Made by a program: the position numbers and the translations under genes
The notes under the pieces: model-generated
Databases searched by the model: none
Seen by the model: the letters and a program-made list of their open reading frames with translations, nothing else
What the model was told of the DNA's origin: nothing
NCBI GenBank assembly: GCA_016200345.1
Contig: JACQEX010000005.1
Span: forward strand, 7,968 to 71,967
Direction: 5' to 3'
DNA from: Nitrospinota bacterium
GTDB lineage: Bacteria > Nitrospinota_A > UBA7883 > JACRGQ01
Length of the DNA stretch: 64,000 nt
Shown: positions 2,925-62,366 of the stretch, one piece after another
How positions within the stretch are numbered: position 1 is the stretch's first letter
Layout: the number at the start of each line of letters is the position of its first letter

Positions 2925-4619
2925 CTATGGAGAACCTGCGCTGATGGTGTAACTGCCGTACTCCGCCTTGGCAACCCCTTTTCCAGTGGCGCCGGTGTAC
3001 AGATATATGTCCGAGCTAACGTATGGCCTGTAAGGCTCGCAAAGCAGGTAGACGGTTTTTGTGCCGTTCGCCACCCAAACGATTTTCGAGGCGAGGTCGT
3101 TGTCCCCGTCCGTGTATGTGTTGTCCGGCGTCACGGCGTCGTTGTCCGCCTCGTAGTCGTCGTTCTGGGCCAGCATGGTCTTGCCGTCGGAGTCAAACAG
3201 GGTCAGCATCGTGTCGGCCCCGTCGCCGAGGCTCGACGTTGCAAACGTGTATTGAGACCCCGACCCGACGGAGATTGCATAATAATGTTTGGCGCCGGCC
3301 GGGAAAAAGTTGTGGACGGTCTGCGTGGTCCCGGGGGTTAGGGTGGTCAACGCGGTGCCGGTCGAACTGTGGGTGCCGTAGGCGTCGGCCACATACCTTA
3401 TCGTCCTGTCGCTTAAAATCGAGGCCATCTGGCCCGGATGGCCCGCGTTCCAGCCGTCGTAAAACCTGTCCAACGTCGCATATATGGCGCTTGTCATTCC
3501 CGGCAGGTATGTGGCAAAGGTGCTCCAAATGCTCCCGTCCGAAAGCCCAAGATAGGGGCTTGTGAGTGACGATCCGGTGGACGCATAAACGTGCCAAAGA
3601 ACGGTTGAGACCGCCAGTTCGTTGTCCGCTCCGGTGGCCTGTGACGAGTAACTCGGGCTGTCTATCTCAAACGCGAAGACCGTCCCGGAAAGCGGCGTTC
3701 CGTCGGCGTTGAGCCAGCCCGGAGTGTCCACGTACCATTTGGGGTAGTCCGCCCCGGTTATCGGCCTCAGGCTTCTGGACATGGCCGAAAAAAATGTAGC
3801 CCACCCCTCGGACCAAGTGAGCCGCAAATCGTAATGCATGTTTATGTAGTGCGCCCCACCGGGGGAGTTGTCCCTCGAATAGTTGGAGGCCGCGTAATGT
3901 CCCGTCTCGTGCATTACCACCGCGTCGTCGTACGCGTCGTTCCCCCCGGCGGCGACCGTGGACGCGCCGTAGACCGATATGGTGTTGCTACCGTTGGTGT
4001 AGTCGGTTCCGCTGTTCCCCTGGTACCAGACCCCCGTGACCCTTGACGGATAGCTTCCCGAGAGGAGGTGGTCAACGTCCTGCGCTCTTATAAGGCAGTC
4101 AAAGATGTTAAAGACGTTTCCCGCGTCGGAGTGGGAGGCCAGTAAATTCACTTTCCAAGACTGGCCCGAGGCGAATGTGAAATCGCTCGACCTAAGCGCG
4201 TAGGTCGCGGAGGCGTTGTCCACCACCGTCGCCGAATAGGGCGAGACCGCGTCGGAAAGTATGCGGACGTAAACCCCTCCCGTCACGGAGACGGAAGGAA
4301 ACGAATAGTAACCGGTGGAATCGCTCGTGGCGGTGGCTACGGCCGCGCCGTTTTGAACCAGTTCCACCCTGGCGTATCTAATCGGCGGCGCCGGGGAAAT
4401 CAGCCTGCCGGTGAGCCCCGACGAGTTCCATTCGAGTTTTTCATAAGTCGCCGTGCCGTAAATCGGCGAGGGGCCGCCGGGAGAGAGGGCCGGCGCGGTC
4501 AGCGAAACGCCGGGCGCCGAAGGGGATGCGACCGTCCCGCCGCTTGTCGAGCCGCTACAGGAGGAGAGCAGAGCGCACATCACCGCGGCAAGATACGCGC
4601 ATTTTTTAACGCGGTGCAT
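2925..4619 (-). CDS. Lipoprotein zinc metallopeptidase (HExxH...E) with C-terminal PPC-like domain
   Basis: Start reassigned to ATG 4619 (MHRVKKCAYLAAVMCALLSSC lipobox); HETGH plus downstream WSEGWA; DTMLTLFDSDG...NDD PPC-like motif; S/T/G rich. Confidence 0.75.
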   Translation of the reverse strand: MHRVKKCAYLAAVMCALLSSCSGSTSGGTVASPSAPGVSLTAPALSPGGPSPIYGTATYEKLEWNSSGLTGRLISPAPPIRYARVELVQNGAAVATATSDSTGYYSFPSVSVTGGVYVRILSDAVSPYSATVVDNASATYALRSSDFTFASGQSWKVNLLASHSDAGNVFNIFDCLIRAQDVDHLLSGSYPSRVTGVWYQGNSGTDYTNGSNTISVYGASTVAAGGNDAYDDAVVMHETGHYAASNYSRDNSPGGAHYINMHYDLRLTWSEGWATFFSAMSRSLRPITGADYPKWYVDTPGWLNADGTPLSGTVFAFEIDSPSYSSQATGADNELAVSTVLWHVYASTGSSLTSPYLGLSDGSIWSTFATYLPGMTSAIYATLDRFYDGWNAGHPGQMASILSDRTIRYVADAYGTHSSTGTALTTLTPGTTQTVHNFFPAGAKHYYAISVGSGSQYTFATSSLGDGADTMLTLFDSDGKTMLAQNDDYEADNDAVTPDNTYTDGDNDLASKIVWVANGTKTVYLLCEPYRPYVSSDIYLYTGATGKGVAKAEYGSYTISAGSP

Positions 4620-6303
4620 TGACCAGCTCAATGAGGGCGGAGTTGTCGTCCTCGTAAAGCGTTTTGCCGAATCGCGAGCTAAAATCTGCAAACACGTTCC
4701 ACGAGTCGCTCCGGGTTAAAAATTGTCTCATGACGCCCTTATTATAAATCACGTGGGTTATTTTTCTGGCGCCCAGCTCCCTGGCAATTTCGCCGGCGTC
4801 GGCATAGGGCTTTAAAAGCCTCATAAAAGTGATGCCGTCCCAGAAGGCGTCGTAATAATACGGCACGTCGCAATAATAAACTTGGTTCCCAAAAAAGACG
4901 AAATAGACCTTGTCCTTTTGGCCGAGGTGCGCGTTGGCGAACATCGTGGCGCCGTAGCCCGCCACCGTCTTTGACAAAAATTCTACGTTGGATTCCCTCC
5001 CCAAAAGCCGGTTCCAGCCCTCGAACCGCGAGGCCGCCAGCGCGTAGCCGCGCAGATCTAAAATCAATAGAAGCGCGGCGCCGCCAAGCGCTAGCGCCAC
5101 CCTTTTTTCCGCCAGCGCGGAGAGCCACCCCGCCGAGAGAAAAATCATGACTGGCAGTACCGGCAGATAATATCGTGCGGTTATGGCAAACAGCAGGCTG
5201 GCCGAGACCATAAAAAGTCCGGCGGAGGCCGCTAAAAATTTCCTGTCTCGGCCCGAAAAAAAGAACGGGGCGCAAAACATCCCAAAAATTAGGAGTAGTG
5301 GGTTAAGCCCGCCGTCGTACCCGCATTTGTTCCCCTCCTCCCCCTCGAAAAAAAGCCTGACGGGGGAGGCGAGGGCGTAGGCGAACGAATCCCCGCATAA
5401 GGCGACCCGTTCTTGCAACGGCCCGTGGAACATCGGGGCGGGGGCGGAGGGGTGTTCGTGGGCGAACCTAATCCACCACGGGGAGCAAAAAAATAGGGCG
5501 GCCAAAAACGAGGCTGACGCCACCTTAAGCCTTGGCGCCCATATGCGGCTCCTGAGGCAGTCGAGAAACAAAACCACGAGGATGCAGGCCAAAAACAGGC
5601 CGGCGTTGTACTTTATCGCGCTTGCCCCCGCCAGCGCCACGGCGCCTTTGTAGCCGTCCGCCGGGAGGTTTTCGCGCAGGTGGCGCCAAAAATAATATGC
5701 CCCGGCGCTGGAGAAAAATAGGACCGCCGGGTCGTTGTAGGCGGTCGTGGAAAGCCTGAAAAACAGCGGCTCCAAAAGTAGCGCACCGCCGGCAAAGATT
5801 CCCCATCCGGCTCCAAACTCCTCCTTTACCCAATGGGCCAAGACCAATGCGGTTCCGAGGTAAAAAAACGCGGGGAGGAACGAAACAGCCCGGTCCAGAC
5901 CGGCGTTTAAAAGCACCAGGTTAAATGGCAGGAGGGCGTTTGGGAACACGGAGCTTGGTTGAAACGGGATGGGAACCCACGCCCCGGCGTGGAGGATGTG
6001 CTTTGGGAGCGCTAGGTGGATGATGAGGTCGTCCCTAAAATACGGCGGAAGGGACGTCAGCCAAAAAACCCACGCCGCAAAAATCCCGAAGGCCGCCCTA
6101 GACCATGTCGGGAGCCCGAAAAATATCCCGCCCCTTGCGACGGTCCAAATTAGGGACGCCAGCCAGAGAAAAAGCAAAATCGAGCCGACGAGCAGGGCCG
6201 GTTTAAGCCCGGCCGTGTTTGCCATAGTGAACAGAAACACCCCCGCGACCGGCATGGAGATGAAAAGGAAAAATAACCTGTCAATTATCTGTTTGGACCC
6301 CAT
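4606..6303 (-). CDS. Polytopic membrane glycosyltransferase, GT-C (ArnT/PMT-like)
   Basis: 565 aa with many TM segments; RDDLIIHL acidic motif in the first loop; AYND, IKYN and RYYLP motifs. Confidence 0.7.
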   Translation of the reverse strand: MGSKQIIDRLFFLFISMPVAGVFLFTMANTAGLKPALLVGSILLFLWLASLIWTVARGGIFFGLPTWSRAAFGIFAAWVFWLTSLPPYFRDDLIIHLALPKHILHAGAWVPIPFQPSSVFPNALLPFNLVLLNAGLDRAVSFLPAFFYLGTALVLAHWVKEEFGAGWGIFAGGALLLEPLFFRLSTTAYNDPAVLFFSSAGAYYFWRHLRENLPADGYKGAVALAGASAIKYNAGLFLACILVVLFLDCLRSRIWAPRLKVASASFLAALFFCSPWWIRFAHEHPSAPAPMFHGPLQERVALCGDSFAYALASPVRLFFEGEEGNKCGYDGGLNPLLLIFGMFCAPFFFSGRDRKFLAASAGLFMVSASLLFAITARYYLPVLPVMIFLSAGWLSALAEKRVALALGGAALLLILDLRGYALAASRFEGWNRLLGRESNVEFLSKTVAGYGATMFANAHLGQKDKVYFVFFGNQVYYCDVPYYYDAFWDGITFMRLLKPYADAGEIARELGARKITHVIYNKGVMRQFLTRSDSWNVFADFSSRFGKTLYEDDNSALIELVNAPR

Positions 6304-6431
6304 TCCCCCAGTCTACCGCACCGAAGGCAAAACTTGGTAACTTGGCCGATTTGTGATACTGTTAGGGCTTAAGACTGAGACGCTGATGCAACAAGAGGGG
6401 CGACTTTTTATCACAATATTTTGAGGTAGGC

Positions 6432-7459: not shown

Positions 7460-7589
<130 letters not shown>

Positions 7590-7601
7590 GGGTAGTGATG
7601 C

Positions 7602-7799
7602 AGGGATTCGAAGGCGAGCTTGCGGCGCGCGCTGGAGCGAAGCGGAAGTGCGCCGGTAGCCGCTTAGGTATAACTCCCTATGCGGCGGACTGTGAGAGGG
7701 AGCGCAAAACAAACAGGACGTTTGTTTTAGCAAGCGAGGTGAGGTTACGCAGGAAAAAACGTGATGTTTTTTCCGTAGTAACCGTTAATCCCTCCCTCT
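7602..7799. other. tRNA-associated multi-hairpin element bounded by sequences derived from the tRNA 3' end
   Basis: 7602-7612 is the reverse complement of tRNA 7527-7537; 7787-7799 duplicates tRNA 7531-7543; four internal hairpins. Confidence 0.6.
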
Positions 7800-10210: not shown

Positions 10211-11206
10211 ATGAAAAAAATCACCATCGCCTTGCTCGCGTCCTTGTTGCTCACCGCGCAGTTTTCGTTCGCGGAGACCAAGACCTTCGAGAAGGAATAC
10301 ACCTATCAAGCGAGCGAGCTGGACAGCAAATCCTCGTGCAGGGTGATGGCGACCGACCAGGTGAAAAGGCTACTGCTACAGGAGATCGGCGTGTACGTCC
10401 AAAGCAAGTTCACGGACAAATCGTCGGAAGGGAAAACGCCCGACCAAGTGAAGCAGGAGATAACCACCCTTACGGCCGGGATTGTGGAAACCAAGATAAT
10501 GGACGAAAAATGGGACGGCGAAAAATATTGGTTGAAGGCCCGCATGACGGTGGATCCGGACGACGTCGCCAGGCAGTTGCAGGAAATGCGCAAAGACTCG
10601 GAAAACAAGGAGACGGTTGACGAACTTAACGCGCAATTGGCCGAGCAGAGAAAAGAGATAGAGAGGCTTCGGGCCGCCGCCCAAGGTTCGAAATCGGAGC
10701 CGAAGGAGAAAATGGAAAAAAATCGCGCGGAATACGCCAAGGCGGTCGAGGCGATGTCGGCAAGCGAGTTTTTGATGGAAGCCCGCCAATTAATGCAATC
10801 GAAACGATTCAACGAGGCACTGCCGCTGTTTTCAAAGGCCGTGGAGGTTAATCCAAGCCTTGCGGCGGCCTATCTGGGGCGCGGAAACGCGTACAACGGC
10901 CTCAAGCAGTTCGAAATGGCGATAAGGGAATACAACCGCGCGGTCGAGCTAAATCCGAGGCTCGGGGCGGCCTTTTTGGGGCGCGGGCACTCTCGTTTTA
11001 TGCTCGCCGATTTTAACGCGGCGTTGGAGGACTTAAACCGGGCGATAGAAATTAATCCGTCGCTGGACTGGGCGTACCTGAACAGGGGCAAAGTTTACAA
11101 AAGGCTCGGCAAACCCAATCTGGCCGTTCAGGATTTTAAAACCGCCGCAAGCCTAGGCAACCAGAAGGCGCGGGAAATTTTGGCCGAGGGTCGTCGGGAA
11201 AAATAG
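10211..11206 (+). CDS. Secreted coiled-coil and TPR protein
   Basis: Signal peptide MKKITIALLASLLLTAQFSFA; four C-terminal TPRs (AYLGRG...A...Y..A...NP). Confidence 0.8.
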   Translation: MKKITIALLASLLLTAQFSFAETKTFEKEYTYQASELDSKSSCRVMATDQVKRLLLQEIGVYVQSKFTDKSSEGKTPDQVKQEITTLTAGIVETKIMDEKWDGEKYWLKARMTVDPDDVARQLQEMRKDSENKETVDELNAQLAEQRKEIERLRAAAQGSKSEPKEKMEKNRAEYAKAVEAMSASEFLMEARQLMQSKRFNEALPLFSKAVEVNPSLAAAYLGRGNAYNGLKQFEMAIREYNRAVELNPRLGAAFLGRGHSRFMLADFNAALEDLNRAIEINPSLDWAYLNRGKVYKRLGKPNLAVQDFKTAASLGNQKAREILAEGRREK

Positions 11207-11298: not shown

Positions 11299-11598
11299 AT
11301 GGAAATCATCAACATTGGCGAGAGGTCTAGTTTTGGGGCGCAGTTCGCGCCGATTGTATTGCGCGTCTCAAAAAAATACAAAACCCCGCTTATCTGCATG
11401 AACCCGGGGCAGGAGATACCGCCGCACCCGAGCGCGACCGGCGTCTTTTACATCGTCGGCGGAAGCGCGGTCATGACGGTCAACGGGCAGGAACACAACG
11501 TGAAGGCCGGAGACATGGTTTTTGTGGACGACGGCGACACAAGGGGAATAAGGGCGGTGGAAAAACTTACGGCGTTTGCGGTGCACATCTCGTCCTAG
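11299..11598 (+). CDS. Cupin domain protein
   Basis: 99 aa; PGQEIPPH, FYIVGG, VKAGDMVFV; AGGAG RBS. Confidence 0.85.
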   Translation: MEIINIGERSSFGAQFAPIVLRVSKKYKTPLICMNPGQEIPPHPSATGVFYIVGGSAVMTVNGQEHNVKAGDMVFVDDGDTRGIRAVEKLTAFAVHISS

Positions 11599-11742
11599 TG
11601 TGGCGTCCCAGCATCATCTATGCGGCGACACAAATTGGTGGCAACGGGATTTATCCTGTTGTTGCGCCCTCAGGGGCGCAAGGCAGGCTAAAGCCCGCCG
11701 CTACCAACGAATGGTAAAGCCGTTATTGGGACACTACGCTAG
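11595..11742. mobile_element. CTAG-bounded MITE containing an inverted pair of REP hairpins (copy A)
   Basis: 17-bp imperfect TIRs at 11595-11611 and 11726-11742; REPs at 11638-11661 (+) and 11681-11704 (-); homologous to 62067-62366. Confidence 0.75.
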
Positions 11743-18386: not shown

Positions 18387-18554
18387 TTAAGATTCCAATC
18401 GGTAGGTACGGGCTTTAGCCTGTACTCTTCCTTGTTTCCCGGCGATTTCTTCCGCCTCCCGCTTGTCAAGAGTGAGCAACAGATAAGATTCCGCGGCCGG
18501 GTAATCCTTCTCCTCCGGCTCCGGCAACCATTTTATATCGTATTTATTCCCCAT
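18387..18554 (-). pseudogene. N-terminal fragment of a conserved hypothetical (ParB/Srx-like) protein
   Basis: MGNKYDIKWLPEPEEKDYPAAESYL resembles the N-terminus of a longer conserved family (recalled, not searched); the reading frame runs into a REP hairpin and stops. Confidence 0.5.
18402..18425 (+). repeat. Solo GTAG-type REP
   Basis: GTAG-GTACGGGC-TTTA-GCCTGTAC. Confidence 0.75.
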
Positions 18555-18777: not shown

Positions 18778-21537
18778 ATGGGCGCTCTAAAAAATTTCAA
18801 ATTGTTCACTATAGTCTTGTTTTTCGCCGCGACTTCGTTTTTTCTAGTGGCGTGCAGCGGTGGCGGTGGTAGTTCCTCAACGGCAAGTAGCGGCCCGGTT
18901 GTCGGCGCGGTCGGCGTGACCGGGCTAACGATGGCCAGTAAAGTCAGCGCCGCCAGCGCCGGCACGGGCGGATCGCTAAAGCCGGACGTGATAGGGCTAA
19001 AGATTATGGACACGAAAGCCAATCTTAACGGGTGGGCCTCCACGGTGGACTACTACAAGGATACCACCAGCGTCTACACCCGTGAGAGGACGGACGAGGC
19101 CCTCCAGACCCCCAACATGATTCTTTGCATGATGAAGCAGGCGGCTTACGACACGATGGTCAACAGAGGGGATAAAAACGGATATTACATCGCGCAGGTC
19201 GATCAAAACCTCTGCTCCACGTCGCAGGATAGCGCGTCGAACGCCGGCAGTAGCAACCAGTCGTCCGGCTCGGCCGCGCCGAATTATTGGTTTTGGACGG
19301 TTCAATCCACCAGGGCGGACAGCAATCCCGGAACCCCTCAATACGTAAGAATATGGTTCCAGATGGACAAGGGCGGCGGCGGGAGCAATCAAAAGACCCA
19401 CGCCCTGATGCTGGTGGAAATTCTAATCACGTCCGGTTACACCACAACCAATCCGTACGGACTTTTCAATATGAACTTTGCCGCTTACCCGGCGGACGCC
19501 ACCGGTGTAATAACCTCCCAAACGCCGGTGATGAAGGGCATCCTTAGGGCGGTCAACGATCCCAACAACGCAGGTAAAGTTCTTTTGGAGTATTGGATGG
19601 CGGAGACGGGGGGAGGCCAGACCAACACTCAAGGGGCGACCGTCTCTAGGTCTTCGGACGGAGCGACCGGCGGAGGCGAGGTCACTTATACCGACTATAC
19701 TTGGGACAACACCAGTGGGCAGTCCACCGCCTCGCCAAAACGGGCCCGCTTTGCGTTCAGCACCGGCTCCGGCGCTTTCATAAGGCAAGGCCTCGATACC
19801 ACGTTGCCTTACAGCTCCTCCGGCGCCGCCATTTGTGAGGACACCGCTAACTTTAAGTATTCCGTCTGGAGCTACGGCATGTACGACGTCAACGGCGCAA
19901 GGGTAAACTTGATGTCGGGCTTCCCGATTAAGTATACCGACAGCAGAGATCATTACGGCTACGTCGGCAACTGGGGTATGAACTTCATGGACGACGTCAC
20001 GGTGGCCGACGGCGCCACAGTTTACAAGCAGGTCTGGTCGAATGGCGCGCCCTCTTCAACCCCCTACACGCTGAAAAAGAGCGGCGGTAAGCTGACTAAA
20101 TACACGCAGAGCGGGTCGTCCTTGAACCAACTTGACGGAGTGGGGTTGAGTTACGGCACCTCAAGCGGCGGTAGTTTTTCCAACTACAACCTGCATTGGA
20201 GCACCGCCTCCGGCGCGTTTGTGCTAGACTCCCTGTGGAATCAAAGCACCAACCAGATGACCCCGTTGACCGGCGCTTTGGACGTCTCCGCGTTGAAGTG
20301 GAACAATAACCTTCAAATGTTTTCCCAGTCTCTTGGCGGGCAGGTAATCATCATGCTACCGGCCTCCGGGGGATACTTCACAAGTTCCACGGCCAGCGGC
20401 ACTTTGGTGCCGGGGACAGGGACGACGTTTGGAGCAGGTACCGGTTCCGGCTGTTTGCTTACCCCCGCAGGATCCGGGAACAATTGGACAAATACTTGGA
20501 ATTGCTCATACGCGGTTTTAGATCCGGCGAAAATTGGGGTAATTTTCTACTCACGGCAGAATATATTCTCCGGCGATAGCGCGATATCCGGCACAGGGAT
20601 TACACTGACCTGTTATACCAACTGTCCGGACGCCACGGCGGTCGCCGCCAATGCGGGGGTGGCGTTCCTCCCGGCCTACGACGGCACCGGGAACCCGGTC
20701 CCCTACACCTACACGTTCAACAAGAGCGCCTACACCCTGAAGGACGGCACTGGCACGTCACTGGTCATGACCTCCAGCGGAAGCGGTTTGTCGGCAGGTA
20801 ATTACGGCGGCGGGGGGACCTTTAGTTGGGGTCTCCAAACTGGGGCGCTTTTCGACCCCACTGCGACGTTGACTACCGCCACGGGACAAACGATTACCTA
20901 CCTGCAAGCCCTGGCGTGTCCTTGGAATTCGGCCATGACCTGCGCTTGGAACGCCAGTAGCATTCTACCGGTTTATTATATTTGGGAGACCGGCTCGAAT
21001 CCTTGGAACACGCTTACCACGCTCCTTGACAGTTCAAACACGCCGTTGAAATTCGACGGCCAGGCGGACGTGGCCTACACGTATGGCAACGGCGCCGGAG
21101 CGTCGGGTAATTCTCTGGCTACCGACAACAAGTACAGCGGTAAAACTTTCCACCTGCAATACGGCGGTTTCGGTCAGTTGTGGGGCATCCCCGGTGTGTG
21201 CGTTAACGCGGACACCGGCGCGACGGACATAACGTGTAATATGAACGACAGGTATGTTCCGGAGTGGATAATACCGGCCGGTTCAAGCGCGAAGTATTCC
21301 TACACCAGTTCCGGCGGCACTTTGATATCCGGGACCGGCTACATCAAGGCGCTGGACGAGGAGAAACAGATGTTGTCAAAGACCTGTCCGGCTTACTCCC
21401 TGACTGCGTATACCATTCTGACGTCGGACGACTGGGTTGTTCCGGCCAACAGCCAGACCTTGCCGACCGTCATCAACCCGGCCCCGGCGGTCATAGCCGG
21501 AACGGTTCAATTGGCGGCGGGTACCGCGGCACATTAG
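18778..21537 (+). CDS. 919-aa S/T/G-rich surface lipoprotein of unknown function
   Basis: GGAGG RBS; lipobox FFLVAC followed by a SGGGGSSS tether; own promoter and terminator. Confidence 0.8.
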   Translation: MGALKNFKLFTIVLFFAATSFFLVACSGGGGSSSTASSGPVVGAVGVTGLTMASKVSAASAGTGGSLKPDVIGLKIMDTKANLNGWASTVDYYKDTTSVYTRERTDEALQTPNMILCMMKQAAYDTMVNRGDKNGYYIAQVDQNLCSTSQDSASNAGSSNQSSGSAAPNYWFWTVQSTRADSNPGTPQYVRIWFQMDKGGGGSNQKTHALMLVEILITSGYTTTNPYGLFNMNFAAYPADATGVITSQTPVMKGILRAVNDPNNAGKVLLEYWMAETGGGQTNTQGATVSRSSDGATGGGEVTYTDYTWDNTSGQSTASPKRARFAFSTGSGAFIRQGLDTTLPYSSSGAAICEDTANFKYSVWSYGMYDVNGARVNLMSGFPIKYTDSRDHYGYVGNWGMNFMDDVTVADGATVYKQVWSNGAPSSTPYTLKKSGGKLTKYTQSGSSLNQLDGVGLSYGTSSGGSFSNYNLHWSTASGAFVLDSLWNQSTNQMTPLTGALDVSALKWNNNLQMFSQSLGGQVIIMLPASGGYFTSSTASGTLVPGTGTTFGAGTGSGCLLTPAGSGNNWTNTWNCSYAVLDPAKIGVIFYSRQNIFSGDSAISGTGITLTCYTNCPDATAVAANAGVAFLPAYDGTGNPVPYTYTFNKSAYTLKDGTGTSLVMTSSGSGLSAGNYGGGGTFSWGLQTGALFDPTATLTTATGQTITYLQALACPWNSAMTCAWNASSILPVYYIWETGSNPWNTLTTLLDSSNTPLKFDGQADVAYTYGNGAGASGNSLATDNKYSGKTFHLQYGGFGQLWGIPGVCVNADTGATDITCNMNDRYVPEWIIPAGSSAKYSYTSSGGTLISGTGYIKALDEEKQMLSKTCPAYSLTAYTILTSDDWVVPANSQTLPTVINPAPAVIAGTVQLAAGTAAH

Positions 21538-21588: not shown

Positions 21589-21598
21589 GTATGAATTG

Positions 21599-21622
21599 GT
21601 AGGTGCGGGCTTCAGCCTGTAC
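21599..21622 (+). repeat. Solo GTAG-type REP
   Basis: GTAG-GTGCGGGC-TTCA-GCCTGTAC, near-identical to 18402-18425. Confidence 0.75.
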
Positions 21623-29760: not shown

Positions 29761-30954
29761 TTAAACCGCAACGCGCTTTCTGAGTTGTGTTGAAGGCTTA
29801 TAACGAGAATGGGTATTTGCACTCAATAGGCCGAACAATTCGGCACCGATAGCGTGAGCCAACCGTACTGGGACGGCGTTTCCGATTTGTCTCATTGCCT
29901 CCCCCCAAGTACCTGAAATTACATAATCATCAGGGAAGGTTTGAATTCTTTTGGCCTCCAAAACCGTAAAATATCTTATTTTGTCGTTCCTGAATCGAAT
30001 CATATTTTCCCCGCCCGGGACTCCATGCCCTCCGGCTTTTATAGTTTTTGAAGGCTGGTCATAATCACTACCGCTATGGCCGGAATATGACCTCGCACCG
30101 TCTCGGTAAATATGGTCTTGAATGCCATGGTCGGAATTAGGGCTTGGAAGGTTGGAAATGGCATCTCTGACCGTAAGCCAAGCACTTCCCGTTGGAGGAA
30201 ACATTCCAAATTTATTTATCAGTTCTTCTTTCAACATCTTTAACTCTGTTGTTGTTGCGTCCCACTCCGATTTTTTAACTTTATGCCTTTCCCAATATTC
30301 ATTCGTCGAATATTTCTCCCACTGCAACCTCTCCCGGCTATGGGTCGGTTTTGGAAATTTCCAGCTTAGGTTTAAATCGTCTCGTAATCCGACGATAACG
30401 ACGCGCTCCCTTGTTTGAGGCACGCCATAATCGGCTACATTAAGGAGCGCATAGCTTACATTGTATTCCGCATTTCCGCCGTCCAAACTCTGGTCGTGTC
30501 GGAGCGAGGTTAGATGCTTTGTCCACGAAACAAAGCTCGTGGCCTCATGGGAAGGTTGCCTTAGCCGCCTAATAATGTATTCAAAATAATCGGCAAACGA
30601 CTCCCTTAACAACCCCTTTACATTCTCAAAGATAAAGGCCTTTGGGGACAAAGTTTCAATTGCTTTAATCGCGTAAGGGAACATATCTCTGTTGTCATCT
30701 TTTCCAAGATGTTTTCCCCCCAATGAAAAGGGTTGGCATGGGGGGCCTCCGGCGATAAGGTCAACGGATGAGAAGTTGTTAAAATCCACGTTGCGAACGT
30801 CCGCCTCTTGGACAATTTCCGACGAGTAATTTTTCCTTAATGAAAGGCAGGCATCTTTATTAAATTCGACAAACGCCTTGTGTTGAAACCCGGCCGCCTC
30901 CAGTCCGCAGGCCAAACCTCCTGCCCCGGAGAACAATTCCAGCGAAGTGAACAT
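29761..30954 (-). CDS. C5-cytosine DNA methyltransferase, M.Eco29kI-like
   Basis: ELFSGAGG, GGPPCQPFS, ENVKG, YGVPQTRER, QIGNAVP; AT-rich. Confidence 0.93.
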   Translation of the reverse strand: MFTSLELFSGAGGLACGLEAAGFQHKAFVEFNKDACLSLRKNYSSEIVQEADVRNVDFNNFSSVDLIAGGPPCQPFSLGGKHLGKDDNRDMFPYAIKAIETLSPKAFIFENVKGLLRESFADYFEYIIRRLRQPSHEATSFVSWTKHLTSLRHDQSLDGGNAEYNVSYALLNVADYGVPQTRERVVIVGLRDDLNLSWKFPKPTHSRERLQWEKYSTNEYWERHKVKKSEWDATTTELKMLKEELINKFGMFPPTGSAWLTVRDAISNLPSPNSDHGIQDHIYRDGARSYSGHSGSDYDQPSKTIKAGGHGVPGGENMIRFRNDKIRYFTVLEAKRIQTFPDDYVISGTWGEAMRQIGNAVPVRLAHAIGAELFGLLSANTHSRYKPSTQLRKRVAV

Positions 30955-31582
30955 CAGGCGCTGCCTAAGGCGGTCATATGGGAGGCAATTTTGTCAATTA
31001 TTGATTTTTTGGCGTTATGTTTGCCTAAACATTTTTTCGCCCAGTATGGATTACGTTCCAATCTGGTTTAGCCCCGTCGTATCGCCCTTTACCCGGGTCG
31101 TGGTTTCCAAATCCGTCTAATACGGAGTTCCACAACGGTTTGTGTATTTTTATCAGGGCGGCCTCTATCGTGCCGATCATATCCGAGCCTTCGCTTTCAA
31201 AAATTACAAACCGGCACATGAAATCTTTGGAGGAGAGGTCAACAAGGTCAACGCTCCTTTTGTGTTGTGCGAGTCTTCCACAAAGCTCATTTGAGCGGTT
31301 TTCAGCTTTATCGTGCGTCCTTGATTGTCTCCATCCGCGAGGCACGGCCTTTCCCACATAAATCGGGAAATTGTATGAGAGGCGGTTTAGGAGAAAATAT
31401 TTTTCGTAAAGAGGACGTTTCCCAATGTAATAAAGGGCGTAAATGCCGCTTCCGGTAAATTTTTCCGCGGGAGGCAGATGGTGAACCGGCGTGCCGTTGA
31501 AAAACCTTACCGCGTCTTTGATTAGCTCGACTAATCCGTCGTTACGGTAAACATGTTTATTGCGGTCAAACCCCTGCTTCAT
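30954..31582 (-). pseudogene. Eco29kI-family GIY-YIG restriction endonuclease, frameshifted near the C-terminus
   Basis: GIYALYY...IYVGKAV, R-x3-H, IEAALI, LWN...DGFGNH. The ORF stops at 31025, but the -1 frame continues KCLGKH... to a TGA overlapping the MTase ATG. Confidence 0.8.
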
Positions 31583-54093: not shown

Positions 54094-55071
54094 CTATATT
54101 TTTTGACCTTTTTTTAACCTAGTTTTAATTAATTTTCGGTAATTGGCCTTAGGTTCGTGGACGGATGGAAAGCCGTCCATCCAGGATAAATCCCTTCCTA
54201 TGACCAACTCCTCCATCGCGGCGTGGTGGGTGTTGTTCATCGGAATTAGACGCATTTGGAAGCCATGTTTTCTTGCTAGAATTTTCACTTCGTCGGCGTT
54301 GTCGTATGTCATTAGAAAGTCGCCCTTAACCTCTTCGCAAATTGAAAACAGCCGCTCGTGGTCAATCATGGAATGATTGTATAGTCTCTTGCCGGCCTTT
54401 TTCCCCCCGGCTGTGTATGGGGGATCAATAAAAAAAATAACATCGTCCCTTTTGGCAAATTCTTGCATCACTTTCAAACCGTCCTCGCGCCTAAAATCTA
54501 TTTTTTTTGAAAAGTCCCCGATGTTCAAAAGCCTGTTTGCTATCGTCCGTGGGTACCAACGCGAAGTGATGCCTTTGCCATTTTCGCCGTGTTTCAAAAT
54601 GCCGGAACCGGGAGCCAGTATCCCTCCGTGGAAGGTTCTGTTTTTTAAAATCGTATGAAACGCGATTTCCTTATTGGATTTAGTTGGCTTGCTGAGTTCC
54701 TTCAAAAGCGATTCTTTGGTCAGATTAAAAGTTAAAATCTTATCGGCCAGCCATTTTGCGTGTCCTTCGACAATCAATTTCCAAACTGCCGCCACCTCAT
54801 TGTCCAATTCGACCATAACCGCTTTTTGAGCTAAATTCTCAGATAATGCGGTAAGGCTGATTATTCCGCCCCCGGCAAACGGCTCCACTAGGAATTTTGG
54901 CTTTTGGTGGAGAGATGAGCACCACCCCCTGAATGTTGGCACAAACCATGTCTTTCCTCCGGGATACCTAAAAGGGCTTAGTTTGGCCACGGACGACACA
55001 TTTACCGGCTTTATTGTCCGGCTCCCACGCAATATATCTGGAAATAATGCAATTTGTTTATGTGGAGGCAT
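54094..55071 (-). CDS. Amino-DNA methyltransferase (Dam/D12-like)
   Basis: SPFRYPGGK, EPFAGGG, IDPPY; AT-rich. Confidence 0.9.
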   Translation of the reverse strand: MPPHKQIALFPDILRGSRTIKPVNVSSVAKLSPFRYPGGKTWFVPTFRGWCSSLHQKPKFLVEPFAGGGIISLTALSENLAQKAVMVELDNEVAAVWKLIVEGHAKWLADKILTFNLTKESLLKELSKPTKSNKEIAFHTILKNRTFHGGILAPGSGILKHGENGKGITSRWYPRTIANRLLNIGDFSKKIDFRREDGLKVMQEFAKRDDVIFFIDPPYTAGGKKAGKRLYNHSMIDHERLFSICEEVKGDFLMTYDNADEVKILARKHGFQMRLIPMNNTHHAAMEELVIGRDLSWMDGFPSVHEPKANYRKLIKTRLKKGQKI

Positions 55072-55074
55072 AAC

Positions 55075-55959
55075 TTAGAAGGGATTCTCAATTGTTTTAT
55101 TAATTGGGGGATTCTCAAGTTTGTCGTCCAGTTTTTCCTGCAAAAGCTTTACAAAATCACCTACATTACCCTGCAAAGGGGTAGTGATGGAAAAAAGAGA
55201 AGATGTGAATTCCGTATATATCTCGTCAACGACCTTTAGTCTATACTTTGGAGCTCCAGTATTTTTGTCCTCTTTCAATTCTAGGTCATATATAAACCAC
55301 GCCATATCAGCCTTTGATTGCGCAACTTTTTTAAGAGTCGGAAGCGTGGAAAAAAATCGTTTGTCGAGGGCGACGGCGCATTTCCTTTTCCAATTATGGA
55401 GAATTCCGCCCTTAAAAAGTAGCTGTGGCGCCAGTCTCTTCCTTGAGGATGAGAGAAAATCAGGACGGGGGTATCTGGGTTGTTTTGACCAGTCCATTAA
55501 TCCGCGTTCCGACGGTTTTTCCATATAATGCTCGAATGGGTCGCGCACATTGCCCGAAATATAAACGGCCTGAACCTCCAAGGCGCCGAAATCCACGACT
55601 TTACCGTTTTTATCGTAGGCTACCAAAATTACGTCAATGTTCCCCGCGGATTTCCCGTTCTTGTCGTTGAGCCGAACCTCGGTGAGGGAACTCCACTTTG
55701 TTCCCTCCTTAAAGAAAAACCTCGCGGCATCGTCAGTGATAATCCAATCCTCGCGGAAACGAATGGGGCAGGTTATTACCGGATGGTTTTTGTGAAAAAT
55801 CGAACATACTCCCAACGGATTTTTTGCCTTGTCCTTCGTGCAATTTGGCACGATGTTGTTGAACGGGCAATATTGATGCGAACGGTACCGTTTTGCGACA
55901 GTGGATTGGTCGGTTGTCAGGTGGCCGAAGACTTCCGCCAAAGGATGTTTGGGGGTCAT
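55075..55959 (-). CDS. NotI-family restriction endonuclease
   Basis: Start reassigned to ATG 55959 (MTPKHPLAEVFG); CPF...C.K...GVCS...CPIRF Cys4 metal site; GNIDV...LEVQAVY. Confidence 0.8.
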   Translation of the reverse strand: MTPKHPLAEVFGHLTTDQSTVAKRYRSHQYCPFNNIVPNCTKDKAKNPLGVCSIFHKNHPVITCPIRFREDWIITDDAARFFFKEGTKWSSLTEVRLNDKNGKSAGNIDVILVAYDKNGKVVDFGALEVQAVYISGNVRDPFEHYMEKPSERGLMDWSKQPRYPRPDFLSSSRKRLAPQLLFKGGILHNWKRKCAVALDKRFFSTLPTLKKVAQSKADMAWFIYDLELKEDKNTGAPKYRLKVVDEIYTEFTSSLFSITTPLQGNVGDFVKLLQEKLDDKLENPPINKTIENPF

Positions 55960-55982
55960 GTTCGGCCACTTAAAGCAAACAT

Positions 55983-56987
55983 CTAAACCAAAAACTTTTT
56001 GGCGGTTTCGACGTCGTCGTTGCTTCCTATATACAACGCGGTGCGCTGGTGCAGGGCCGTAGGCACGATGTCTAAAATCCTTTTGCCGGTCGCGTCCACC
56101 GCCTGCCCCCCCGCCTGCTCCGCTATGAACGCAAGCGGAATCGCCTCGTACATCAGCCGTAGCTTTCCCTGCGGGCTTCTCTTGTCGGGCGGATACATAA
56201 ATATCCCCCCCTTCGTGAGGTTTCTGTGGAAGTCCGCGACGAGCGAGCCGATGTAGCGCGACGAGTACGGCCTTCCGGTCGCCTTGTCGTCGGAGACGAA
56301 ATAATCCACCATCTTTTTTGTTTTGTCGTCCCAGAAAATTCTGTTCCCCTCGTTGACGCTGTAAATGCCCCCTTTTTTCGGCGATTTGATGTTCGGGTGA
56401 GAGAGGATGAACTCGCCAACGCCGGGGTCGAGCGTGAAGCCGTGGACCCCCAGACCGGTGCTGTATACGAACATCGTGGACGAGCCGTAGACCGCGTACC
56501 CGGCGGCGATCATCTGGTTGCCCGGCTGAAGGAAATCCTCCGCCGCGCATTTCGGGCCGGTTGATTTTTTCTTAAAAATAGAAAATATACTGCCGATGCT
56601 CACGTTCACGTCTATGTTTGAGGAGCCGTCCAGCGGGTCGAATAGCAGGACGTATTTGCCGCCCTGCGGGTGTCTGTCGGGGATGGGGATATAATCGTCC
56701 ACCTCCTCCGAGGCCATGCCGCAGAGATAGCCGGTGTGGTCCATCTTGTGGATTATGGTCGTGTTGGCGAAGACGTCGAGTTTTTGTTGAATCTCCCCCT
56801 GTATGTTCGTGGTTCCCGCCTGGCCGAGGATGTTCATAAGCCCCGCCTTGTTGACCTCGTAAGCGATTACCTTGAGCGCGACCACCAGCTCGTAGAGCAT
56901 CCCGGAAAAATCGCCCTTCGCGCCCGGAAACTGGCGCTGTTCCTCCATTATTTTTTTTGTTATCGTCGTTCCAAGCCTGGTAGTCAT
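55983..56987 (-). CDS. fbp: Fructose-1,6-bisphosphatase class 1
   Basis: EIQQKLDV, FDPLDGSSNID, RYIGSLVADFHR, KLRLMYE. Confidence 0.97.
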   Translation of the reverse strand: MTTRLGTTITKKIMEEQRQFPGAKGDFSGMLYELVVALKVIAYEVNKAGLMNILGQAGTTNIQGEIQQKLDVFANTTIIHKMDHTGYLCGMASEEVDDYIPIPDRHPQGGKYVLLFDPLDGSSNIDVNVSIGSIFSIFKKKSTGPKCAAEDFLQPGNQMIAAGYAVYGSSTMFVYSTGLGVHGFTLDPGVGEFILSHPNIKSPKKGGIYSVNEGNRIFWDDKTKKMVDYFVSDDKATGRPYSSRYIGSLVADFHRNLTKGGIFMYPPDKRSPQGKLRLMYEAIPLAFIAEQAGGQAVDATGKRILDIVPTALHQRTALYIGSNDDVETAKKFLV

Positions 56988-62066: not shown

Positions 62067-62366
62067 CTAGGGCGGTGTTCCAGTATCTCCTTTACAGGCG
62101 GCGCCTGCGCCAACACGAATTGGTAGCAACGGGATTCATCCTGTTTCTGCGCCCGCAGTGAATGGTTGAGACTTTAAAATGTGAATCAGAGCGAGCGGTT
62201 TGAGACTGTATGAGGGTTGACGAAGGCAGGGCGCAAGGCAGGCCGCAGTAAACGACCATATACTTCCGCCCTCGAAGTCAGAGCGTGTATTATTGCCACT
62301 AGAGGATGGTCGCCGAAAAGCCCGCCGCCACCATAGCGTAATTCTTTTACTGGGACACCGCACTAG
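62067..62366. mobile_element. CTAG-bounded MITE with REP hairpins (copy B, expanded)
   Basis: TIRs CTAGGGCGGTGTTCCAG / CTGGGACACCGCACTAG (15/17 complementary); internal blocks shared with 11595-11742. Confidence 0.75.

Follow-up and report, generated by a model that had tools for sequence, protein, structure and literature searches.

A CTAG-bounded composite repeat with inverted outer arms and a REP heterodimer core in Nitrospinota

The 64-kb stretch of Nitrospinota DNA analysed here (the window) carries a 148-bp element at 11595-11742, the first four nucleotides of which hold the stop codon of a cupin gene (Cupin_2). A preliminary description of this DNA had bounded the element by CTAG on either side and had reported imperfectly inverted 17-nt ends, two head-to-head REP hairpins with GT(A/G)G tags, a central palindrome and a second copy at 62067-62366, and our analysis bears out each of these features (Table 1): the left end CTAGTGTGGCGTCCCAG matches the reverse complement of the right end (CTAGCGTAGTGTCCCAA) at 13 of 17 positions, the four differences being transitions, the tags of the two REPs face outward, and the second copy has the same ends and core. 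Similarity between the inverted arms, as captured by an HMM, reaches approximately 30 nt. Read from the outside in, the element consists of the CTAG ends, the ~30-nt inverted arms, two diverged REPs (types A and B) and a GC-rich palindrome. The 20-mer core was seen twice in the window compared to 0.02 expected occurrences, and no other repeat family of comparable length was found within the 64 kb. The data support a repeated, non-coding, CTAG-flanked unit with inverted arms around a REP dyad.

Table 1. Features of the element, of its second copy and of the solo REPs in the window (coordinates are those of the 64-kb stretch).
Feature	Coordinates	Strand	Remarks
Left terminal CTAG	11595..11598	+	TAG at 11596-11598 is the stop of the cupin gene (11299-11598)
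Left outer inverted arm	11595..11624	+	arm HMM match; first 17 nt are the inverted end of the preliminary description; encloses a small hairpin, GCAT-CATCT-ATGC
Left spacer	11625..11636	+	partly conserved in the alignment of copies; no counterpart on the right side
REP type A	11637..11660	+	GGTGGC-AACGGGA-TTTA-TCCTGTT; G.T pair in stem
Central palindrome (element apex)	11662..11681	.	TTGCGCCC-TCAG-GGGCGCAA; stem kept, loop varies; one double compensatory change in L004
REP type B	11682..11705	-	GGTAGC-GGCGGGC-TTTA-GCCTGCC
Right outer inverted arm	11713..11742	-	arm HMM match 11742-11713; CTAG end at 11739-11742
Solo REP type C	18401..18425	+	GGTAG-GTACGGGC-TTTA-GCCTGTAC; intergenic, without outer arms; weak HMM match
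Solo REP type C	21598..21622	+	GGTAG-GTGCGGGC-TTCA-GCCTGTAC; intergenic, without outer arms; directly after a terminator-like hairpin
Second copy	62067..62366	+	same orientation; between hisB start and hybrid kinase gene stop; CTAG at both ends
Insertion 1 of second copy	62155..62228	+	in apex loop; bracketed GCAG...GCAG
Insertion 2 of second copy	62244..62319	+	in loop of REP type B; homologous to insertion 1

The inverted ends of the second copy match at 15 of 17 positions, and this copy carries two extra segments of ~75 nt, one in the apex loop and one in the loop of the right REP. These insertions may represent a tiny element that targets REP loops, and IS1397 likewise inserts into the loops of REPs. 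Insertion into REP sequences is also on record for ISPpu9, with the loops not specified (PMC12288879).

REPs also occur outside the composite unit. In addition to the two type C REPs of the window, a scan for the tag plus hairpin detected further solo REPs in the loci L019 and L030. Types A, B and C have in common the (TT)GGTAG sequence, the core CRGG-N-TTYA-N-CCTG and the length of the stem, they differ in the lower stem by compensatory changes, and the design of the REP is a GTAG or GTGG tag placed 1 nt 5' of a 7-8 bp hairpin with a TTYA loop. Because solo REPs of like design occur without the arms, the REP is a module of its own that is separable from the outer arms. The two solo REPs of the window flank, in direct orientation, a 919-aa ORF without Pfam match (18778-21537), and in L019 a 410-bp tandem duplication (5759-6428) beside TPR repeats bears the two solo REPs of that locus.

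Genome and metagenome scans were queried with the REP pattern, the genome scan being run with the exact pattern on one genome per species. Seventeen of the 22 matches from the genome scan were coding or due to chance, and the true homologues (L004, L010, L014, L019 and L022) all reside in Nitrospinota MAGs; the metagenome scan yielded three loci, with two copies on one contig (L028), a truncated copy (L029) and the solo REP of L030. The family totals ten copies in at least five genomes, eight of them outside the window, where they are spread over no fewer than four further Nitrospinota MAGs or metagenomes. Three composite copies were found in one fragmented MAG, the window itself holds six REP units, and BLAST searches of plasmids with the element gave no match. 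As judged from cupin and hisB homologues, the host genomes are 63-85% identical in protein (74-82% for hisB alone). REP type A is unchanged in 9 of 9 aligned copies, although hisB of the hosts is so diverged, and exact matches to its 20-mer occur in Nitrospinota MAGs.

The polarity of the element is constant in all copies, with type A on the side of the arm ...GTATTYCCTTTACA and type B on the side of ...TGTAAAGCCGTTAC. The spacer on the right is short and differs between copies, and the arms of L004 and L010 are diverged and contain indels, with traces persisting. HMM searches of 222 kb of Nitrospinota DNA detected no outer arm without the REP dyad. The copies are confined to intergenic positions in either orientation, and relative to the neighbouring genes they lie in sense (copy 1, L004), in antisense (copy 2, L028B) or between divergent genes (L014, L019). 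An open frame of L010 (2075-3583) with a glycosyltransferase domain at its start spans the element copy at 3131-3200; the frame could be spurious, or this copy could lie within the 3' portion of a gene. The apparent copy number is low compared to classical REPINs (2 per 64 kb and few database matches). In the source species, three short-read contigs stop 12-14 nt into a REP, which fits a branch of the assembly graph at a repeat without being proof of it, since other causes are possible; assemblies of these genomes from short reads may be interrupted by the repeat. The element is a non-autonomous, lineage-restricted mobile repeat whose hosts are a few uncultured Nitrospinota of groundwater and sediment.

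The fold of the element has z-scores of -7.9 (plus strand) and -6.8 (minus strand) relative to shuffled sequences, and structure models were compared on nine aligned dyads. A cloverleaf, with separate folds for the apex and for each REP, leaves 94% of the cells paired and contains three pairs that are changed on both sides, two in type B (G-C to A-T in L010, L014 and L022) and one in the apex, its covariation exceeding that of all 500 shuffles. A continuous rod running across the REP dyad (83.8% paired, zero covariation) was rejected. The compensatory changes therefore indicate that each hairpin folds on its own. In 4 of the 9 copies, A.C mismatches occur in the helix that could form between the two tags, and thus the tags vary independently, as GTAG or GTGG, and not as a pair. 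The two REPs are mirror images of one another, and in most copies each has a G.T pair when read on its own strand, an arrangement that fits DNA hairpins on both strands rather than one RNA. Rfam searches of the whole window, along with a permissive scan of the locus, gave no match to the element and returned only tRNAs and noise. GC skew was too noisy to read a replication-strand bias.

CTAG is depleted five-fold in the window (46 observed versus 246 expected), and all four termini of the two copies are CTAG. The cupin homologues (12 of 12) share the position of the C-terminus to within one or two residues, and the nearest relative (L024, 80% identity) ends in TCC TAG with the element absent. 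Because the cupin C-terminus is conserved and L024 ends this way without the element, the stop codon at copy 1 is native, and the CTAG at the left end belongs to the target site. A DUF3187 gene of L022, which ends ...GVQF* and matches the Pfam profile up to position 318 of 320, has its minus-strand stop within the CTAG at the right end of the element. In two independent genes from two genomes, a native stop codon is located inside the terminal CTAG, and intact copies have CTAG at the far end too. We conclude that the terminal CTAG is target-derived and that the element entered at CTAG, with CTAG left on both sides. Empty sites were sought through the cupin and hisB neighbours and none was recovered from relatives at 63-85% protein identity, in which synteny is lost; same-species short-read contigs end within the element. 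An integron attC site was rejected, as the ends CTAGTG... and ...CGCTAG do not fit the R''/R' core sites RYYYAAC ... GTTRRRY.

We consider it probable, at roughly 0.85, that the element is a mobile REP-cored repeat that inserts at CTAG. As to how it moves, we tentatively favour, at somewhat short of even odds, a long REPIN- or BIME-like unit mobilised by a Y1 (RAYT-type) enzyme that cuts C^T. The whole unit would move as a folded single strand through the action of a Y1 HUH transposase of the RAYT type, which would bind the tag plus hairpin and cut C^T; in the folded strand, the paired outer arms would bring the two C^TAG cut sites next to each other, excision would reseal the CTAG of the donor site, and integration at a target C^TAG would recreate CTAG at both ends, such that no second enzyme class would be required. 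E. coli TnpA-REP requires GTAG and an irregularity in the stem, uses a single-strand substrate and cuts C^T on either side of the REP, at distances that can exceed 400 nt (PMC3333891), and for other RAYTs the AG of the tag selects CT, while GTGG shifts the cut to CC (PMC8266576). Since C^TAG cuts at both ends and in the target give the same CTAG...CTAG pattern, a DDE enzyme is not required. The Y1 model is favoured because variation is seen in the termini but neither in the tag nor in the type A hairpin, because REPs of like design occur alone and because 'double inverted repeats', in which a REP is combined with a stem-loop, are known and tied to tyrosine transposases (PMC3733652). Moreover, conservation is higher in the core than at the termini, whereas a DDE-dependent MITE would be expected to show the opposite.

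Several points count against a Y1 enzyme. The cut sites lie ~40 nt from the tags, the G.T mismatch is absent from some REP variants and the apparent copy number is low. To our knowledge, no study has demonstrated that integration driven by a RAYT selects a palindromic target of 4 nt, and inverted arms together with a palindromic CTAG or TA target are the classical signature of the IS630, IS5 and IS701 DDE enzymes. No RAYT gene was identified by Pfam among the 65 ORFs of the window or by motif scans of ~160 kb of related loci, neither motif scans nor Pfam on the 65 ORFs of the 64-kb window revealed a gene for a Y1, DDE or GIY-YIG enzyme, and no IS bearing the ends of the element (CTAG-TGTAGTGTCCCAG) was detected in ~222 kb of reachable Nitrospinota DNA.

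The same ends could be those of a classical MITE, whose inverted arms would be read as double-stranded DNA by a DDE transposase of the IS630 type (TA duplication inside CTAG) or of the IS5, IS427 or IS701 type (4-bp CTAG duplication), the REP dyad being a passenger of the founder copy. We regard this origin, the main rival to the Y1 model, as possible, albeit unlikely. Inverted arms of 17-30 nt coincide with CTAG at 4 of 4 window ends, intergenic position and size fit, and the CTAG is target-derived at two native stop codons, although this last pattern would be yielded equally by C^T cleavage. IS5, IS427 and IS701 types duplicate 4-bp YTAR targets. A preference of IS630 for TA within CTAG, as Tenzen & Ohtsubo 1991 are cited to this effect in PMC2170065, also counts for a MITE. 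However, no IS with these ends was found in the ~222 kb of Nitrospinota DNA or in plasmids, the window is devoid of a transposase (Pfam, 65 ORFs), the internal REP is invariant whereas the termini are less conserved, arms without the REP dyad are absent from the 222 kb, and comparison of copies 1 and 2 shows one compensatory change between the two arms, which is unexpected for arms that are read as duplex. The preliminary description had held that the element would simply be a long REPIN if the inverted ends never occurred without the REPs and if neither empty sites nor a cognate IS existed; the restriction of the arms, within the 222 kb, to units with a REP dyad agrees with the first half of that statement and covers only this half.

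The preliminary description itself had proposed a true hybrid, in which a RAYT would act on the REPs and a DDE transposase on the arms, either being able to move the unit. The cis features of both systems are indeed present and the solo REPs imply separate histories of the modules, yet neither enzyme was found in the ~222 kb covered, one enzyme class suffices, and all ten copies contain both modules, independent use of either route not being evident, so that we judge a dual route very improbable. Even less credence is given to a structured non-coding RNA or a cis-regulatory hairpin (terminator or mRNA stabiliser) that the host keeps and that does not move. The very stable fold, the covarying hairpins, the confinement of the copy 2 insertions to loops and the position of copy 1 directly after a stop codon would suit such an RNA, but Rfam matches are absent, the orientation to neighbouring genes is mixed, the tag helix has its A.C mismatches, the mirror-image REPs have a G.T each on its own strand, the genomic contexts are unrelated and the CTAG ends coincide with native stops. 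On account of the Rfam result, the mixed orientation, the A.C mismatches and the mirror-image REPs, a strand-specific RNA element was rejected. Returning to the Y1 model, we find it doubtful, as a combined proposition, that the copies are natural footprints of REP-dimer integration (a folded heterodimer placed at C^TAG by a RAYT-type Y1 enzyme, with CTAG regenerated) and that the hairpin module travels between phyla on phages. If true, such footprints would provide the first insertion-site rule for REPIN-like elements.

The element resembles REP, BIME and REPIN systems with RAYTs, such as the BIMEs of E. coli and the REPINs of P. fluorescens, in its GTAG-type tag 5' of a short imperfect hairpin, in the extragenic occurrence of singletons and head-to-head heterodimers, and in a dimer able to form either a single long hairpin or separate ones; the ends would be explained by C^T cleavage. 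In terms of the cis features by which REPs and REPINs are recognised, the tag lies 5' of the hairpin, doublets (nine A-B heterodimers) and singletons are present and the hairpin is kept. Unlike these systems, the element adds ~30-nt outer arms and a 4-nt palindromic target regenerated at both ends, its apparent copy number is low, it belongs to the phylum Nitrospinota, and no RAYT was found in the window or related loci. Terminal inverted repeats and a target-site duplication (CTAG), the hallmarks of MITEs, are present as well. With palindromic MITEs (Correia/NEMIS, ERIC and Nezha; IS630, IS5 and IS701 derivatives), the element shares a size in the range of 100-300 bp, inverted ends, TA or CTAG flanks, a long hairpin fold and intergenic insertion beside gene ends, but a GTAG-tagged REP dimer forms its core and is conserved more strongly than its ends, and no parental IS is known.

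IS200/IS605 elements and PATEs likewise have subterminal hairpins, a 5' tetranucleotide guide and insertion beside a specific tetranucleotide with no true duplication needed, whereas their end hairpins are direct on one strand and without inverted arms. The CGTC-tagged NTS/SRM repeats associated with Ssn GIY-YIG nucleases are also tagged, oriented hairpin repeats and have a dedicated single-strand nuclease, differing in the tag (CGTC, not GTAG) and in the class of the enzyme (PMC11893778). In 'double inverted repeats' and TIRtron repeats, a GTAG REP is joined to an unrelated stem-loop, and these genome-repeated units are tied to tyrosine transposases (PMC3733652). They flank RAYT/TIRYT genes in Pseudomonas and others (Di Nocera et al. 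2013), whereas the present element has no associated gene and a defined CTAG target. The view of the preliminary description that the arrangement had not been described is too strong, given that BIMEs, head-to-head heterodimers and 'double inverted repeats' are on record (PMC3733652): the build is unusual yet has precedent. What is new is that, in a repeat of Nitrospinota, a REP heterodimer core is combined with outer arms and with a CTAG target that is regenerated. GTAG-tagged repeats are hereby extended to this phylum. For studies of how REPs and REPINs move and choose their sites in vivo, a bounded REP dimer with a regenerated 4-nt target offers a testable substrate, the type A REP together with C^TAG. 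Were a DDE enzyme to move the element instead, it would be a MITE in which a REP dimer has become fixed as the part that is conserved best, a situation that would call for explanation.

A related hairpin was observed in viral contigs (IMG/VR, L039-L056). This 24-nt GTAG-tagged hairpin, GGTAG(C/T/G)-CGCAGGC-TTYA-GCCTGCG, has a perfect stem and the tag and loop of the element, and it occurs once or twice in each of 14 viral contigs, mostly unrelated and with a G+C content of 42-65% (for example, L053 8343-8366, L054 1990-2013 and L049 3026-3070). It lies mostly in sense in intergenic regions of the head module and at times in clusters of GTAG hairpins, forming a dyad in L049 and following other GTAG hairpins right after a stop codon in L042, L046 and L048. 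No Rfam family corresponds to this phage-type hairpin, a literature search retrieved no paper bearing the sequence, and BLAST against cultured phages gave chance matches only. L046 and L053, which are related viral contigs that both carry the GTAG hairpin, also encode type II hammerhead ribozymes (Rfam RF02276, above the gathering score) at 5837-5943 (minus strand) and 10875-10958 (plus strand), respectively.

In Oscillospiraceae MAGs (L002 6358-6587, L003 244-263 and L013 6123-6142), we noted inverted pairs, ~200 bp apart, of GTCGTAGGGCAACGGGATTTATCCTGTTAGGGGC (GTCGTAGGGCAACGGGATTTATCCTGTT), which include the 20-mer hairpin of the Nitrospinota type A REP with a GTAG tag ahead. Elsewhere in the window, at 7527-7612, the 3' end of a tRNA-Ser gene (7460-7549) has an inverted repeat 16 nt downstream, around a terminator-like hairpin with an A-run and a T-run. 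The window also contains two restriction-modification pairs (29764-31582 and 54097-56550), one composed of an Eco29kI-like endonuclease and a C5 methylase and the other of a NotI-like endonuclease and a putative DNA methyltransferase, the latter with a weak D12-class match over one third of the profile.
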